64,000 nt of DNA from assembly GCA_000442015.1 (NCBI GenBank), contig KE560384.1, forward strand, positions 1 through 64,000. Direction: 5' to 3'. The notes beneath the pieces were generated by a model, which ran no database searches, was not told where the DNA came from, and saw nothing but the letters and a program-made list of their open reading frames with translations. Origin of the DNA: Rozella allomycis CSF55 (taxonomy: Eukaryota). The position numbers and the translations under genes are program-made. How positions within the stretch are numbered: position 1 is the first letter of the stretch; each line of letters starts with the position of its first letter. Positions 12,203 through 43,800 of this stretch are shown here, piece by piece.

Positions 12203-13954
12203 ATGAGTACTGTAGAATTTGAAAGCCAGTTAAAAGAAGCCCTTTCACGCAACCCCCATGATTTTAGTGCATGGGAGCAGTTATTGCAAGTGAACGAGAC
12301 CAAAGTAGCGAAAGCGTTAGCTGAAGCGCCTAGAACAAAGATGACGATAGATACTATGCCAGAGTCACTTAGAAGAGCGATTCAAGGAACACAAAAAACA
12401 TATGATGAATTTCTGGGAAGATTTCCGTATTGCTTTGGATATTGGAAAAAGTATGCCGAGTTTGAGATGGTACACGAGGGAGATGTGAAGGCGAGAGAGG
12501 TAAAAGTATTTTTTTAAAAATAAATCAGGTGTATGAGAGAGGGGTTGGAGCGTTTCCGAACAGTGTTGATTTGTGGATTCAATACTGTACGTTTGTGACC
12601 AAGATAACGAAGAATCCAACTGAGGTGAGGGGGTTGTATGAAAGGGGAGTTGAGTGTATTGGATTAGATTTTATGGCGCATTCATTTTATGATATATATT
12701 TGGAGTGGGAGGAGAATCGTGCGATTGAGCAAAACAGTTATTCGAGGACGTTGTCGTTGTTGGATAGACTGATAAGGATTCCGATGCAGCAATACCAACG
12801 ATATTATGAAAGATATCAACAGATAGCGAATGTGAGAAACGCGAGGGAAATGGTGTCAGCGGAGGAGTATCAAGTGTTGAGAAAGAGGGTTATTGGAGAG
12901 ATGAAGACGAGACAAGTGAAGAACATAGTAAATAGAATGTGAAATGGTTATGAATAGAGAGATGATGCTGTGGATTCAGAAATCAAACAAATTGTGTTGA
13001 ATGACAGAGCAGGGGTATTTTCTATTACAGAAGAAAAAGTAAAGAAGAGATGGCAATTTGAAGAAAACATTAAGAGGCCATATTTCCACGTGAAGCCATT
13101 AGATGAAGGGCAGATCATCAATTGGAATAAATATTTAGATTTTGAAGAGAGCGAAGGAGACGCCGTGAGAATAATTTCATTGTATGAAAGATGTTTGATT
13201 TCTTGTGCGTTTTATGAAGAATTTTGGATTCGCTATTCCAAATATTTGATCTTGATTCAAGATTATGAAAGAGCAGAAAATGTTTTCATTAGATCTGTCT
13301 ATACTTTTATTCCAGAATCTCAACCAAAATGTTTAATTAGTTTTGTCTATTTCAAAGAAAGTCAAGGTACCATGTGGCATAGTTATTTAATCTAGGTACC
13401 ATGTGGCTGAGTGATCTAATCTAGGTAAAATAAATGAAGCGAGAGAATTATTGAATTATTATTTACAAAAAAGACCAGGGCAGTTGCAAGTATTAATTGA
13501 ATATGCCAACTTTGAAAAGAGGAATAAATCTTTTCAAGATGGATTGAAGTTTATTTCCAGTTGGTTGGAAAGCGTTGATGAAGTTTCAAAGCCTTTTCTT
13601 TACTCCTTCTTGGCCAAAAATATTTGGATTTACAATAAAGAAATTAACAAAGCAAGAGAAATGTTCATTAAAGGAATCCAAGAAACAACCGATAAATTTT
13701 TACTCTTTCAATACATTCAATTTGAAATCACAAATAACAATCTAGAGTCAAAAGAAAATGTTTTGAATATTTTTAATTTAATCAAAGATTATTCTTTTCC
13801 AATTCACATCAAAAAACAAGTCGTTGAGAAAATTTGTGATTTTTTAATAGATTGTGGCTGTGCAATGAAAGAGTAAGAAATTTCATGTTCTATTTTTAGA
13901 ATTTCTGATTTCGAAATTTCCAGTTTGAAAGAAATTCTAAATTTCAAAAATTAA
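12203..13954 (+). CDS. PRP39: U1 snRNP HAT-repeat protein Prp39
   Basis: FPYCFGYWKKYA, IGLDFMAH, IKRPYFHVKPLD and LYERCLISCA motifs. Confidence 0.93.
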
Positions 13955-32317: not shown

Positions 32318-33496
32318 ATGACAGTTGAACAAGTTTTAGTTTTATGGGAGGAGGCAAAGTCTCTTGCGTTTGGTACTTGATATATTCCAAATAAAATTAG
32401 ATGAACATGCAAAAATAGAAAAGTTTAAGCGAAAACTTCGTAGTATAAACTTTACCATAGAACATGTCACCACTGAAGAAAAATCTACATGCGTTTTGCT
32501 ATACCTGTCGGCTAGGTGTTATTACAGTCCGTATTTTATAGAGGGTATACCCAAGTTGGACAGTATTAATTTGAATGCTGCTCTGGATGATGTTAAGAAG
32601 TATTTCGTGCAAGATAATTACCAAAGCCAAGATATTGAGCTGTACAAGAAAGATTCAAGCTTTAGCGATAGTGACGATGATGATAACATAGAAATATCAC
32701 GACTAGATATTCCACCGGTAAAATTGAAGAAAAGTAGACCTTACACAAAGAAGTGGAAAGAATTTCAACAGGTTATTTACGCTTTTGAAAGCATTTTGAA
32801 TCAATTCTCAAATGATGACATTTTGATTAACTGGAACACGATCGTGCCAATATTAATCCAGCTGATAGATGATTACGTTTTAGTTAATCGTAAAATTGGA
32901 GTTTCCATTATTCATAACATCCTCAAATTTAATGTTGGACCATTGCTAACCAGGAATAACATTTCCGTGGTTTTTGAAAAGTCTTTATATCCCTGCCTTA
33001 CATATTATAAAGAGCAACGCCTTATCGAAGAAACGTTAAATTCTTTGCTTAAGATAATTGAATATACTGCGCACAAAGCCTCTGCTTCATATTATGAAAG
33101 ACTTGATGTCCTTTTTACAAGAGTTTTGAAAGACCTAAGAGTTGAAACAAATATTAAACTTTGTCTTATATATTGGCAATTAACTATTAAAATTAAAGAT
33201 ATGCTTGGATTGATGATCATCACCTATTTTGACACTCTTATTCCTCTCTGTTGTAATGTTTTACTTGAACCTGATTATCCAAATGATCTGTGTTTAAAAT
33301 GTCTCGAATTTGTAGAATCAATAATTTTAAAATACCCAATAGAGTAAAATATTTCATCTAATGTGATGTTAGGTCAAGGAGGCTCAGTCATGAAATTGTT
33401 ACATTATTAAGAAAGAATTATTCGTTCTCATCGGACGAAAACAAAGATTGTATACAAACTATCAATGAATTCAAAAAATATAAAGGCATTTATTAA
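32318..33496 (+). CDS. TTI2: TTT complex subunit Tti2-like
   Basis: WNTIVPILIQLIDDY...KIGV motif; 2 short introns. Confidence 0.65.
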
Positions 33497-34005
33497 CCTT
33501 CAATGGGAATGGCTTTTCTGTTTTCAATTTCTTGTTCCTCATTTTTGGGTATTTCAATATTAAGAATTCCATCAGAGTAGTTGGCCTTTATTTCTAATAA
33601 AATTTGACACATTAATTTACCTTCAACCTTGGCATTTTCTGGTAGAGGAAATTGTCTTTTAAAAATTCCATACATCCTTTCTCGGGCCCAAAAAGTTGGG
33701 GTCTCATGATCATGGTTTCCTTTATCTTCCCATGTCTTTTCTGACTTGAGCTCTCCTGATATCATTAATGTGTTTCCGTTCAAAATTTCAAGTTTAATGT
33801 CTTCTTTTTTCACACCCGGCAATTCCGCCTCAATTTTAAAATCCTTTGGAGTTTCAATGACGTCTGCATTCATTTCTCTGTAGTCTTTCATTTTATTTGA
33901 TGTCAAGTGTGGGCTGAAATTGAAGGAGGACTTAATTAAGGGTTCTTCAAATATCTTCGAGATTCGATTCAAGTCATTAATTAATACTCTCTGTAATCGA
34001 TTCAT
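33493..34005 (-). CDS. Small heat shock protein (HSP20/alpha-crystallin)
   Basis: ELPGVKKEDIK, ERMYGIFKRQFPLP and ANYSDGILNIEIPK motifs; in-frame 27-nt intron at 33594-33620. Confidence 0.95.
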   Translation of the reverse strand: MNRLQRVLINDLNRISKIFEEPLIKSSFNFSPHLTSNKMKDYREMNADVIETPKDFKIEAELPGVKKEDIKLEILNGNTLMISGELKSEKTWEDKGNHDHETPTFWARERMYGIFKRQFPLPENAKVEGKLMCQILLEIKANYSDGILNIEIPKNEEQEIENRKAIPIEG

Positions 34006-34052
34006 TATAATTAAAGGCTGCGGTTCTTCCTTAAATACTTTTAATCAAGATC

Positions 34053-36695: not shown

Positions 36696-38570
36696 ATGGA
36701 CCTGGAGCTAGCACCAATATTAAGACCTAAATATGACGAGTTCAAAGATTCTATAAGGTTTATTAGCAATATATACTCACAAATATCTGAAATAGGAGCA
36801 TGCCAAGTTGTGCCACCAGCCGATTGGAAAAGAACAACAGGATTTGAATGCCTTGATCATCTTAACCAAGTAATAAAGAGATTGTCAGGTCATTAGTGTG
36901 AAATGCCGGTGTATTCTCAAAAACTTCATTTGATTAATGGGCTTCGAAGAGTAGATCACGGCTTGACTCAAAGTTTCGTTACATTCATAAAATCTTTTGG
37001 GGCTAATGGTCATGGAAAGTTATTTTTTATCGGAAAAAACATAAGTTGTTTTGAACTTTCAAACATTATTGATGAGTCTCAAGTAAATTTCTAGCTGGCC
37101 ACAATATTTAGTGGAATATGGAGAAAGTCATTGAAAAAATCGGTATTAATACAAATGAGACATTTGCCATTAAAGAAATTGGATTGTTCTTTGAATATCT
37201 ACTCCTGGTTAAGGAGGTGAAGGCAGAGGCTTTACAATGGGGAATGAGTGTGCACGATTTTTGTAATTCCGGTCTAGTTATCAAGGTTAATGACAGCAAA
37301 GTAAAGCTTTAGAAAATCATTAAACAAAGTTTGTTTGTAAATCATGCAATAAGCAAGTATATTTAAGAGAGTTGACCTTCTGCAGGGTTTGTAAAGACAG
37401 ATTTCACAGTTCGTGTGTATTATCCATTTCTTGCACCAACAAATATTATTGTGTGCGTTGTATTGTTTTGCCCGGGCATGCATTTAGTTTCGAGCAAGTT
37501 GAAGGGATGACAGTAAAAGAATTTGTTCAAAGCTGCGATAATACAGTCGGAAATGAATTGGAAACCGAAAAAGAATATTGGCAAATTTTGGATGCAGGAT
37601 GTTACAAGGCTCTATACGGAGCAAATATTGATTACAAAACATTGCAAAGTGGGTTTGATGATAACAAAAATGATCAATGGAGTCTTTTAAATTTGCCGCG
37701 CATGTCCCTTTTGAAATATTTGGCTAATGACATCCCTGGCCTGACTCACCCCTGGTTATACTTCGGTTCTAAATTTTCTACATTTTGCTGGCATATTGAA
37801 GATCATTCCTTGATGTCAATTAATTATTTACATTCAGGCGCTGTTAAAACGTGGTATATAATTCCACCTGAGTATTCCACTGCTTTTGAATTGTGTTTAC
37901 AAAAAACATTACCCCTTCTGTTCATTAGCCAGCCAAAACTTTTGTATCAGATGAATCTTATTCTTCCATTGGATGTATTGAAGAAGCATGGCATTCCTGT
38001 GTACAAAATAAACCAAGTCCCAGGGACATTTGTGATTACTTTTCCGAATTGTTACCATTCTGGATTCAACAATGGAGTAATGCCTATATTTGTTGAAAAA
38101 TAGTTCAATATTGCAGAGGCTGTTAATTTGGCTCTTCCGCAATGGATCCCATTCGCAATGCAAAGCCTAAATCGCTACGCCATTGACCAGCGACTTAATT
38201 TGTTAAGCGTTGATGAAATAATCATTCAAATGATTGAAAATGACGAAAAAATGTCATCCGAGTAAAAATAATCGAAATATTGGCTAGGATTGTATCCATT
38301 CTAATTGAACAAATATCTACCGAAATACGTATAAGAAGAGCCCTGATTGAGAAGTATGGGGAAGTAAAGATAAAAAAGAAACAAAAACGATATATGAATA
38401 AGCATGCATGTAATAATTGCAAAAAGATATTTTTCTTTTCTTATGCTGCTGTTCCTGAAGGCACTTTGTGCCTTTCTTGTATTCAAGATACTCCAGAATA
38501 CGTCGTTTACGGCCTTTCTAGCGACTATTTAACTTTTTTGTTGGAAAAAGTGAATAAAATCTATTGTTGA
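36696..38570 (+). CDS. KDM5/JARID1-type JmjC histone demethylase
   Basis: JmjN (APILRP..GACQVVPPADW), PHD-like Cys motif, JmjC FCWHIEDH...YHSGFN and C-terminal C5HC2-like region. Confidence 0.9.
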
Positions 38571-38792
38571 AAACCACAAGGCCTTTTTGCTATTTGAGTT
38601 TTTAGTATAATATTTTCATGAGGATGCTGATGAATTACAGCGTTTATAATTACCATCTGTTAGTCAACTATACACATGTGGTCCAGACACTGCGCAAGAA
38701 GAAGAGCTGAACTTTAAACCATTTGATCTCCAACGATTGAGATTAAAATGACCTGTCTGTTCACACATTCCTAAAATAATGTAAAGACAAAA

Positions 38793-39263
38793 TTAATAAG
38801 CTCTTTTATATAAATAATGGTCGTCATTTTTAGGATTGCTACGATGGGATCCTTTTACAAAGGGGATCTGTGGAATTTGCGATTTATCATTTCTTGATCT
38901 GTCAGTTGCAATCATTTTTTGTTTTTCTTCTGTATAAACTTGATGCATTTTGACTAAAAAAGACGAAATGCATGTATTACCTAACTCTTTGTAATTATAG
39001 AATGGCGGTAAATCTTTGGCGGACAAGTAGCTTTTATTTGAGCCATGCTGATCCACGCCCAGGAAATCCAATAATTTTTCATGCAGTTTTGGATTTTTAA
39101 AGCTCTTGTTTGCAAAAAGTTTTTCATTGAACGATAGGCCTGATGTAGTTTTAAGGTGATACCAATGTGCAAACTTGTGTTGAAGTGCATCTGATGCCTT
39201 ATTTGTGCTTTTTGGTATTATAACGCTGTCGGGGTTTGTTAAAAAGGGATAATAATCAGACAT
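38793..39263 (-). CDS. HCNGP/SAP30BP family protein
   Basis: SFNEKL..NKSFKNPKLHEKLLDFLGVDQHGSN motif; in-frame 27-nt intron. Confidence 0.85.
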   Translation of the reverse strand: MSDYYPFLTNPDSVIIPKSTNKASDALQHKFAHWYHLKTTSGLSFNEKLFANKSFKNPKLHEKLLDFLGVDQHGSNKSYLSAKDLPPFYNYKELGNTCISSFLVKMHQVYTEEKQKMIATDRSRNDKSQIPQIPFVKGSHRSNPKNDDHYLYKRAY

Positions 39264-39338
39264 TTAAATGTGGCTAATTTTTTAAGTGTCCCAGTGGATC
39301 AAATAGAAAATGGAATAAGTTCAATTTAATGAAAGAAT

Positions 39339-42300
39339 TTATTTGTCTACCTTTTCCTTTGAATTATTTTCGTTTTGATTTTCCAAGTCTTTATCATAGC
39401 CCAACAACCAATACGTTCTCATTGAACCTTTTCCCTGATTGCAAATAAAAGAGACTGTTACTTTCACTTGAATTTCACCTCTATATTCAGTTTTGAAACC
39501 GCTTAGTTTTTGAAGGGCATTGTAGGCGGACTCGCTGAGTTGAATTTTCATTGCTTCCGACGTACTCTCCATTCTAGATGCAACATTGATAGTGTCACCA
39601 AATAAGCAATATCTAATGATTGTAGGATTAAATAAGCATACCTTGGTAATTTTAATCCGACAACACCAGTGACACATGGACCTTTAATGTGCTTGAATAT
39701 TCATATGTTACCTAGTCGATGGTGATTACTTTATTAATTTACCTGTGTTGATACCAATTCTTATCTGTAGTTTGAAATCTGGTTTATGTGGCACTGTGAA
39801 ATTTTTGGCTTCTTCCAATAAATGAAGGGCCATTTTTGCGATTTCACCGACATGTTTAATTCCATTCCGTCTAGGCAAACCAGAAGCGACCATGTAGCTA
39901 TCACCTTTGATAAAACATATTGAAAGAATACCTATGTGAAGGATTAAAAATGGTTACCTATTGTTTCTACTTTATAAACGTCATATTGACCAATAATTTT
40001 ATCAAACATTGAATATAATTTATTCAAGAATTCAACTATTTGATTTGGAGTGCTTGAAGATGTCAAATCAGAATAGCCCACAACATCAGAAAAGTAGATT
40101 GTACATTCGTCAAACGATTCTGGCGGAACTGGGATTCCTAATTTGACTTTGATTTTTTAAAAAACCTTTTTGAAGATTTGAAGCAATTTGAGGCGGTAAA
40201 ATTTCTTGTAATAAATTCTTTGCATTTTTCTGGGCTGTAGCCAAAGCGCTAGCCACACCTTATGTTAAGAAATGAATAATGGGAAACCTTGATAATTTTA
40301 TTTTAACTATTTTACCTTTAATTTGAGTTTCTTTCATTATTCGAATTTCTTCTTCTCTCGCTTTGCTTTCTTCTTCTTCTGTTAAATCTCTAATGACCCC
40401 TGTAAAAATATGAAAATCTTCTTCCAAAACTTCAGTGACGGATAAACTAATAGGAAATTCATCTCCATTCTTTTTTCTCCCTGTTACTGTTCTTCCAATG
40501 CCAATAACTTTCTTAATCCCAGTATTTAAGTAATTTGACAGATAAGTGTCGTGATTTGTTGCGAATCTTTCTGGCATCAACATTTTAATGTTTTCTCCAA
40601 CAACTTCTTTTGCTGAATAGCCAAACATATTCTCTGCTGCTTGATTGAATCTTAAAATGATGCCATTCTTTCCAATGCTAACAATTCCATCCAAAACTGT
40701 ATTCAAAACTGAACTCAAAATTCTTCTTTCAACATGCATCTTCTTTTCTGACTCTCTAATAATCAAATTGGATTGTTTTTCTCTTTCCTGCATTGCTATA
40801 ATCTCCTCAATCTCTTTTCTATGATTGCTTCTAACAGTCTTCAAGTAATTTGATTGTTCTTCATCCAAAATTAATAATCTCTCGTTATGGTTTTGCTTCA
40901 TTTGATTGTATTCCTGTAAATGAATCATTTTTGAATCACCTAAATTCATTTCCTTCCTCTTTACCAACGCTTTGTGATTATTAATCATTTCTTCCAATTG
41001 CTTTTCCAATGATTGAATGTGCGAATCATTTTCTACTCCAAATTTATTATCAATTTCCAATTCTTCATTAAATGCCATCGATATCTCGGAATCATTGTCT
41101 GAAATATCTCCTGTAGACCCTTGTGATTGCAACCCCTGTGATTTGGATTTCGATTTGATCGATCTGTTTCTTGTATTATTATTCTTTTTAAAATCTCTCA
41201 TCTCTTCAAATTCATCCTCCTTTTCTTCATTCTCTTCAATCTCCTCCTCTAAGTCAACTTTACTCTTCATTAGCCATTTCTTTCCCCTCATTGACGCTTG
41301 AAGTAAATGTTCTCTTTGGAGTTGTTTCAACTGCATCTTTTGATTTCCCCTCAGTTTTTTCAAGTCATTCGCTTGCTCTGTCTTTATTTTCACCATCTTT
41401 ATTGTTTCCCTCAGGTTTTCAATCTTTTCTTTACTAGCACTAATCTCTGCCTTTTCATTCAACTCAATCTCTACAAAAGAAGAAGCTTGACTAAGCCCCA
41501 GAGATTGCAATTCTTCATAAAACTCTTCTTCTTTTTCTATTCGCTCTTTTCTTTGTCGCATTTCAATAATCTGAATCTCTCTCAATTGTTCACTCTTCTT
41601 TTTATTAATCACCTTCAAGTTATTCATTCTAAACTGGAAATCTTTCATCTTGTCCATCTGCTCATATTCCATCAAATGCTTAGATTCCAATTCATGAAAA
41701 ACTTGCTCATCTCTCATCAATCTCTCTTGCTCTTCTTGCAACTGCCTTTGCTCCCTGATATGTCTCTCCTCCATCTGAACAACTAAAGCTTCATTTGCTA
41801 ATCTCCTCATATCAACACTCTTCTTCAAATTTTCAGCAGCCATCCTACTCGCCTCCTGCTGATGAATCAACATGGCGCGACTCTTTGTCTCCTTGTACAT
41901 CTGCTTCTGAAGCCGCTTTGTGTTCCGCCTATTCTGACGCTCCTGCAATACTCTCAAATGATTCTGCTTCTTATGTTCCATCTCCTCTCTATGCCCCGCC
42001 TTCATCACACTCACCTCCTCCTCGCATCGTCTCTTGAAATACACATCTTCCTCTTTTCTATTTCATAAATTTTAAAAATTTTACCTGCTTAACTCAATCT
42101 CTGCCCTCTTGATCTCATTCTCCACCTCAATAGCATTTCTTCGTAATTCACCAATAATTTGATCAATCATGCACTGTTGTTTCTCTCGAAACATACGAGT
42201 TGCTTCCTCATTTGATAAAACATTCCCTTTATGACCAACTACTATGGGTTCAAATGTAGATGATCTGCTGGGCCGGTCGTTTGCTTGGACTCCTAGTTGG

Positions 42301-42401
42301 TCTATTGATTGTAAAATCTCTGACACTGACAATGATCTACTCAATTTTAATTGAGCTAGATCATTGGTACACTCTTTACTGGCTTTTCTACTGCTCTCCA
42401 T
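39339..42401 (-). CDS. Coiled-coil + PAS + class III guanylate cyclase
   Basis: After splicing: [39 protein letters not shown] and [21 protein letters not shown] domain at about 40390-40700. Confidence 0.92.
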
Positions 42402-42537
42402 TTCTTATTTCAATAATACAATTGTGCTTGGTTACAACAGAAAACAAATACGGTAACACTTTGACGACTTATAATATTCAACCAAAAATACATTGTAAAA
42501 GCTTAAATAAACAATGTAAGTGATAAAAGTCAATAAT

Positions 42538-43800
42538 TTAAACAGACTTTATTTGAGATATTTCACGAAATAATTCTTCCTCTTGTAATAGATGTATCAA
42601 TTGATTATGTCTAGTCAACATGAGCAATATTCCTTCGTAGCTTTGTTCCATAATTATTGGCGATAACACTTTTAGAATAGCTATCCTAATCAAAGGTCAC
42701 TTTTACCTATGCAGACTTTCAACAAAAAATCTTCGCCAAAATATATAAAGTTATCAAAAACTCTAAGATGCGTTTCATGATCGAGAATGGGAACGAACAA
42801 AGTCATCAACCATTGAATGGAAAAGTCATGCATTTCAACACATTCCCTTTTTAAATGAACATACAAGTTATATTCTTCATTAAACAAAATTTGTTCTAAT
42901 TGCTGTATGTATGGATTTATCTGTTATTATATTGATTAAATGGAATTTACCTTTTCCATTTGTAATGAATATAGAGACTTCAACAATGGGCATTCAATTA
43001 AATTTGCAAATTGTACAAAAGCAATCTCCTCTTGCAAATGTATTATTAGCGGATAAAGCACATAAGTCATTCCTTGAATCTACAACACACAAAAAGGAAA
43101 ATTACATATCCTTTTGAAGGCCTGAAAAACACATATGCCTCCAAAACCCTTTCAATTCTCTTCCGTCTTGTTCTTAGAACCGGACACCTGTCAATATCCA
43201 TTCCTATTAATTTCACAGTGTTCTCTTTGCCGATGGCAAATGGCTTTGCTGACATTAAGAATAGATTTGCTCTCTGCCGATATGTCGCAAAAACGGACAC
43301 TGTCAAGTGCAGATTGTTAGGTATCAGTTTTTGATATATTAAAGATCTGAAAATTCCCGGTATACCCTGAAAAAATGCCTCCTCCATTGAATATTGGTCT
43401 GATGTTTCCCTCTATTAATCTCACATCAATCTTACCCTTTTTGTAGATCAGGAATTATTCTTTTTCTCCATAATGTTGTTCGTGAATCTTTTAGGGACGA
43501 GTCTCTAGAATACGCTGAATCAGTTGTCGGAGTAGGCGATGGTGGGTATATGGCCGTTTCTATTTATAAAATTAAAGCTTTTTACCTGCAATCGACGTAT
43601 TATCACTTTTATGCTGAGAGTAGTAACTCGAATTTCTTCTTATATTTCTTTATTGATGTAATTAATTACGTTTTGTTAAGAAAAAGCAATTTTATTGGTT
43701 CTTATTATTTAGAAAAGAATATTGTACCCCAAAAACATACGTTAGAATATTTTTTAGTCGACGGCTCTCTCCTGGTTGGTTTCAGACAACCGGTGTTCAT
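42538..43800 (-). CDS. Second TBC-domain Rab GAP with intact catalytic fingers
   Basis: GIPGIFRSLIY, IGMDIDR (R finger), GYIQGM (Q finger) and LRVFD motifs. Confidence 0.8.

Follow-up and report, generated by a model that had tools for sequence, protein, structure and literature searches.

End-to-end minimal introns in a cyclase gene of Rozella allomycis suggest piecewise removal of longer introns

A class III (guanylate-type) cyclase gene of Rozella allomycis CSF55 is interrupted within its conserved INTG|P motif by 61 nt that read as two mini-introns set end to end, and this pair is one of three in the same gene, which suggests that in this organism longer introns are cut piecewise. The pair had been treated as a one-off in a first-pass annotation of the first 64,000 nucleotides of contig KE560384.1 (the whole stretch analysed, hereafter the window); it is instead one case of a genome-wide architecture, in which chains of up to seven units occur. 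We consider it quite probable that such chains have grown by tandem duplication and are removed unit by unit by a length-limited spliceosome.

The 3' part of the host gene (39339..42057, minus strand) encodes a coiled-coil region, a PAS domain and the cyclase domain (Pfam PAS_9, E 3e-13; Guanylate_cyc, E 1e-15), with an open frame of 820 codons once spliced, and contains six introns, three of them twins and three singles of 27-29 nt. At the protein level one of its exons agrees at 100% with an entry labelled Rozella allomycis, as does an SMC1 exon of this genome at 98%. In the INTG|P twin, the first unit (39712..39742, minus) is a phase 1 intron of 31 nt with GTAA..TAG ends, whose donor and acceptor lie at the 98th and 66th percentiles of single introns. 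The second unit (39682..39711, minus) is a 30-nt GTAA..AAG intron whose acceptor lies at the 86th percentile and whose donor rises from the 63rd percentile as it lies to the 88th after unit 1 excision. The two meet at a TAG|GT junction (39710..39714, minus) with a zero-length exon between 39712 and 39711, a junction type shared by 121 of the 135 internal junctions in 61 chains collected from the genome. The sequence bears out what had been annotated here, that is, two GT..AG units of 31 + 30 nt on the minus strand between ..ACAG and GTCC.. flanks. It also agrees with the claim of two complete introns without a microexon, since the protein encoded after removal of the 61 nt aligns gap-free at INTG|P with ten others, namely the gene's public model and nine receptor guanylate cyclases from animals. 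Excision of unit 1 alone or of unit 2 alone leads to a stop within 4 and 6 codons, respectively. For a shuffled 61-nt intron of the same composition, the chance of an AG|GT with both halves of 29-32 nt is 0.0056, and the sole other GT..AG window of 24-34 nt in the 110 bases scanned (39754-39729, 26 nt) intrudes on conserved exon. Both units have U2-type features, their GT..AG ends fitting the genome's own consensus, and a U2 snRNA with the usual GUAGUA is found in the genome. A branch-point motif could not be clearly placed in either unit; in single introns YTRAY is weakly enriched at 9-10 nt before the 3' end (52 and 40 against 25 and 24 expected).

The two further twins of the cyclase gene (26+27 and 28+29 nt) had been overlooked in the first-pass annotation. 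The second twin interrupts ETIG|D, spanning 39905..39957 (minus) as 39957-39932 (26 nt) and 39931-39905 (27 nt); ETIGD is unbroken in 87 of 90 homologues, and the 27-nt unit, if it alone is retained, is in frame, stop-free and adds 9 amino acids. The third, upstream of the cyclase helix, consists of 40315-40288 (28 nt) and 40287-40259 (29 nt, with a weak GTT donor) on the minus strand and is required for the open frame, in a region where the homologue alignment is poor and the public model P0001 splices differently. The single introns, also on the minus strand, are those of 28 nt at 40138..40165, of 29 nt in the LPR|Y motif at 39613..39641, and of 27 nt, in frame at VK|GK, at 39435..39461 (ends taken from the printed sequence). 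The last of these is retained by P0001 as a 9-residue insertion, which nine homologues do not have; P0001 also appears to join the cyclase to a TBC-domain gene lying upstream. At the G|GT-P site, that of the INTG|P twin, the closest paralogue has a single intron of 28 nt, preceded by TG instead of AG. A fourth twin of the window, in a PRP39-like gene (13367..13424, plus; 29+29 nt), has units 81% alike and is, judging by this likeness, a young duplicate. Elsewhere in the window, 33388-34044 (minus) was called by eye from its translation as a small heat-shock-like gene. Translation of the window with the ciliate code was abandoned; with short introns allowed for, the standard code fits.

Introns of this size are the norm in the genome. 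Our own gene finder was run ab initio on 819,618 bases, at first with neither a chain model nor a length prior that peaks; of the 1554 introns it then predicted, 1240 measured 26-31 nt, and the distribution has an abrupt lower limit at 26 nt. In the window, 94 of 103 introns fall in the same range. The finder tends to leave stop-free 27- and 30-nt units as exon, missing stop-free in-frame introns, and for this reason chain ends were taken from a run with a chain bonus. Predicted introns of at least 50 nt split wholly into units of 25-33 nt in 6 of 55 cases on contigs not selected for chains (0.31 expected), a sample that is not blind to the finding, four of the six being in the window itself. 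The same test gave 2 of 55 on large contigs from a loose pattern list (0.23 expected) and 44 of 66 at loci chosen for chains (0.83 expected). The final models retain 36 single introns of at least 34 nt that are not divisible into units. For sixteen of these the flanks were of sufficient length for a scan, which supported none as a true long intron; most gave no Pfam hit, and the two with both flanks in one Pfam family each contain an N. One of these two, an apparent 50-nt intron in RPN1, is instead, as expected of a strict length ruler, a 29-nt GT..TG intron (L075:3667-3695, minus), where a base error is possible; once it is excised, the exons on either side correspond to residues 848 and 849 of the solved protein. 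TG at 28-29 nt is likewise present in three more of the apparently long introns.

An excess of chains is found throughout the genome. The pattern TAGGTA-N20-25-TAGGTA-N20-25-WAGG has 172 matches, against none with N32-37, and the two-unit pattern has 258, whereas shifting one spacer leaves 12 and 11, these controls lacking one degenerate base and being thus slightly looser than the test pattern; the counts are of overlapping unit pairs, not of chains, and some lie in duplicated copies. A reversed-pattern control (490 and 600 matches against 277 and 309) was rejected, the reversed pattern being a common coding word. The chains lie in genes that we take, in part from Pfam hits, to encode SMC1, several dyneins, Top2, GCN1, TRA1, VPS13, RPN1, UBA1 (two twins in 10 kb), CCT, SPT16, glycogen debranching enzyme and flagellar proteins. 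SMC1 has the longest chain, at 7 units; when its chains of 6, 5 and 7 units are excised, the residues brought together are neighbours in homologues, and an eighth unit was rejected because it gives a stop. An RNA run under the same species label contains 0.00 of the words of positions 38000-42900 and yields no contig on the 10-kb UBA1 locus, and has no bearing either way. In a metagenome, three TAGGTAA junctions occur in at least 121 stretches, with no Rozella-type chain among the 80 listed with flanks; these 80 resemble mini- or microsatellites or coding repeats, 9 of them having at least 30 open codons on both sides, and the scan is uninformative on other species. Four AT-rich metagenome contigs (L147, L181, L197 and L208) share a degenerate 30-31-nt repeat with TAG|GTAA and have no flanking open frames.

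For the study of chain anatomy, 61 of 74 called chains, with 196 units, were kept, and 13 were dropped (10 chosen by eye, the remainder by filter) for an N, a stretch edge, a duplicate copy or doubtful ends. All 196 units measure 26-33 nt, and the chains 53-208 nt. Chains differ from single introns in their exon flanks: the upstream exon ends in AG in 38 of 48 chains versus 310 of 1352 singles, the downstream exon begins with G in 45 versus 466 and with GT in 32 versus 132, and AG|..|G is present at both flanks in 36 versus 109, the 48 being chains whose flanks were not fixed by search patterns and whose counts misplaced ends would inflate. Where the ends are fixed by homology (two cyclase and three SMC1 chains), AG|..|G is found in 5 of 5. 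The acceptor is TAG in 52 of 54 internal positions, against 745 of 1352 singles, and the last acceptor is AAG in 19 of 32; compensation of this weaker acceptor by pyrimidines was rejected as the cause of the C-richness of last units described below, as AAG singles and last units are no richer in pyrimidine than TAG ones. Upstream exon ends are not like unit ends above chance (permutation p 0.54), bar one 9-nt case, and downstream exon ends are weakly like them (p 0.001 by permutation; 0.13 against singles).

To account for this architecture, it is proposed that the R. allomycis U2 spliceosome is practically restricted to introns of 26-31 nt. An intron flanked as AG|GT..AG|G(T) could be copied head to tail, aided by the short direct repeat at its ends, and the duplicate would be tolerated: both copies are whole introns within the permitted length, and whichever is removed, the AG|GT site is restored. 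With an internal junction in place, each later duplication by one unit length would add a valid unit, so that chains may reach seven units and turn over. The INTG|P gap would then be a diverged twin, most likely cut in two ordinary reactions that release two small lariats; as the 5' signal of one unit overlaps the 3' signal of the unit before it, neighbouring units can probably not be engaged simultaneously. We infer in this way the stepwise removal, in whichever order, the mechanism of duplication, and the duplication origin of the INTG|P pair.

The persistence of the internal junctions bears on whether the chains are indeed taken apart. It can be argued that a chain, although born by duplication, is removed in one step as an ordinary intron, 61 nt long in the INTG|P case, and that the internal junction is a leftover. 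The public models do take the 53- and 61-nt gaps as single introns, which is a prediction only, many chains are young enough for leftover junctions to survive, and, given the 36 unsplit long singles, one-step removal of true long introns may occur. Junctions and lengths persist, however, in units whose bodies have decayed, as in all three cyclase twins, where unit likeness is at background (0.33, 0.39 and 0.21); this apparent selection, acting on junctions and on the length of units, speaks for splicing of each unit by itself. Further evidence comes from the assembly itself, which holds head-to-tail near-duplicates of 100-780 bases, 85-99% alike and often at an N (contigs C47, C518, C200, C288, C381, C485, C611 and C648), and these near-identical copies are probably two alleles placed side by side by the assembler. 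In six copy pairs the chains differ at 89 of 581 sites, the flanks at 9 of 831 and single introns at 24 of 247, chain divergence being roughly that of ordinary introns in regions that failed to collapse. All 15 internal junctions are unchanged between copies whose chains differ by 15% (P about 4e-6 at the chain rate, a generous value given that the comparison register itself used junctions); they come from six loci other than the cyclase, for which no second copy was found in the assembly. Unit number differs in two copy pairs, Top2 having 4 complete units plus a partial one versus 3, and a GCN2-like gene 4 complete units plus a partial one versus 4. A fold that loops out the chain, as one-step removal might use, gave no signal (mean z -0.08 over 61 chains; INTG|P twin z +1.2). 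On these grounds one-step removal appears rather unlikely, and two-step removal of the INTG|P twin likely.

A different objection concerns only the origin of the pair and is compatible with stepwise removal. The INTG|P units had been described as dissimilar and the pair taken to be old or due to independent insertion; the dissimilarity stands (core identity 0.33, at the 53rd percentile of random single-intron pairs), while independent insertion as its explanation is not supported. In its general form, the objection holds that the second unit was inserted independently into the AG|GT of the first, or that the pair was left by the loss of a small exon. AG|GT is a classic context of intron insertion sites, which suits the former version. 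Exon loss is reported, in the part of the source available, to yield juxtaposed introns in snoRNA host genes (PMC3596301), but at INTG|P and ETIG|D the homologues have no residues to lose. As to insertion, a likeness of at least 70% is found in 27 of 135 adjacent unit pairs, whereas none of 1830 cross-chain pairs and none of 3000 pairs of single introns drawn at random reaches it; with no unit matching a unit of another chain at that level, nothing points to a mobile donor family. Among two-unit chains, 5 of 26 contain a pair above the 99th percentile; among those with at least five units, 12 of 13 do. We regard independent insertion as an unlikely origin; in view of the likeness between neighbours, the single intron of the paralogue at the same site and the divergence already seen between presumed allelic chain copies, an old tandem duplication whose likeness has been lost fits the INTG|P twin better.

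It may also be supposed that the internal junction serves as a regulatory alternative splice site, partial removal giving unproductive mRNA that tunes selected genes. Chains are concentrated in few genes, 51 of the 76 AG|..|G introns in chain-bearing genes being chains (these genes were mostly chosen for chains). Their link with gene length is weak: genes of 2.5-4 kb have chains at 7 of 126 introns (three from the cyclase gene), genes under 2.5 kb at 4 of 1020 and genes over 4 kb at 0 of 41. Of regulatory interest, 5 of the 6 cyclase products with one unit left in meet a premature stop, and only 9 of the 196 units would read through if retained. Stops are nevertheless to be expected in AT-rich introns, the more so with a finder prone to overlook stop-free in-frame ones, the variation of unit number between presumed alleles looks neutral, and the chain genes are varied housekeeping and flagellar genes, so a regulatory role seems improbable. 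An assembly artefact, with two allelic versions of one intron set side by side, is barely credible: the assembly does contain such head-to-tail pairs of near-identical sequence, many of them at an N, but these copies have duplicated exon flanks and are themselves 85-99% alike, whereas the INTG|P twin has no duplicated flank, a likeness at background and its nearest N in the window more than 3 kb off, and where two copies exist the chain is in both and chains reach 7 units.

Two features, the clustering in particular genes and a G-to-C gradient along the chains, are not accounted for by the duplication model. First units are G-rich (G:C 225:83) and last units C-rich (96:191; 49 of 61 chains), and the gradient has mirror symmetry about the chain centre; the chain at L068:702-909 provides an example of the contrast. 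On the sense strand, GC skew at four-fold sites runs from +0.42 to -0.15 along genes of at least 2.5 kb, such as L068 (SMC1), and that of single introns from +0.63 to -0.30 along such genes, short genes being nearly flat. Avoidance of cryptic AG or GT, considered as a cause, does not explain the gradient. One SMC1 chain contains the reverse complement of a junction. Our guess is that the gradient might come from a strand-symmetric DNA process, break repair or fork meeting.

Several known systems resemble these chains in part. In Drosophila, ratchet points divide large introns, the proof consisting of junction reads, lariats and read gradients (10.1101/006163, in part). As in that zero-nucleotide recursive splicing, the Rozella interruption has an AG|GT junction inside and no exon between; unlike the large introns of Drosophila, the Rozella chains measure 53-208 nt, each segment is a minimal intron of 26-33 nt, and the chains are periodic, apparently grown by duplication, and identified here in DNA sequence. 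Fungal polycistronic snoRNA genes contain "complex introns" in which complete introns are juxtaposed with no exons between, and ESTs and RT-PCR fit their 5'-to-3' stepwise removal, with alternative acceptor use possible (PMC3596301, in part). The Rozella units likewise abut without an exon, and in a fungus. The snoRNA cases, as far as that source describes them, have non-coding hosts and snoRNA cargo and are put down to exon loss (PMC3596301), in contrast to the Rozella twin, which lies within conserved coding motifs with no missing residues; units of 30 nt would be far too short for a snoRNA. Ascomycete stwintrons also place two U2 introns at one position and require two reactions, the inner intron lying inside a donor, branch or acceptor element of the outer intron or next to it, so that the order is fixed (PMC7138796, in part). 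Compared with that description, the Rozella units abut, each with its own intact GT and AG in the primary sequence, and nothing forces an order; on this anatomy, the INTG|P twin is not a stwintron.

In the model attributed to Rogers, introns are reportedly gained by tandem duplication of an AGGT-containing segment, the new intron being made out of exon sequence. The Rozella chains share with it the AG|GT at both ends that lets a tandem duplicate splice out cleanly, and differ in that an existing intron is duplicated at the same position. No paper describing such chains in Rozella was found in a search of the main texts of mostly open-access papers, and PMC8476143 and PMC13685798 describe none in the parts of them available.

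A more far-reaching version of the preferred reading, to which we give somewhat less than even weight, is that of a ruler spliceosome that works at a fixed distance of 26-31 nt and can remove nothing longer. Long introns would then exist as self-extending chains, recursive splicing would be obligatory, the junctions would be safe sites for duplication, and the gradient would be a record of the DNA break or fork meeting that drives growth in particular genes. If unit-by-unit removal is right, recursive splicing would not be restricted to very long animal introns and would also be how a tiny-intron spliceosome handles anything over about 31 nt; the chains would offer a natural test of how near to each other two spliceosomes can work, and of what determines minimum and maximum intron length. 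Intron gain by duplication would be visible as it happens, in alleles one or more whole units apart, and the gene models of this genome would conceal hundreds of splice junctions within annotated "long" introns.
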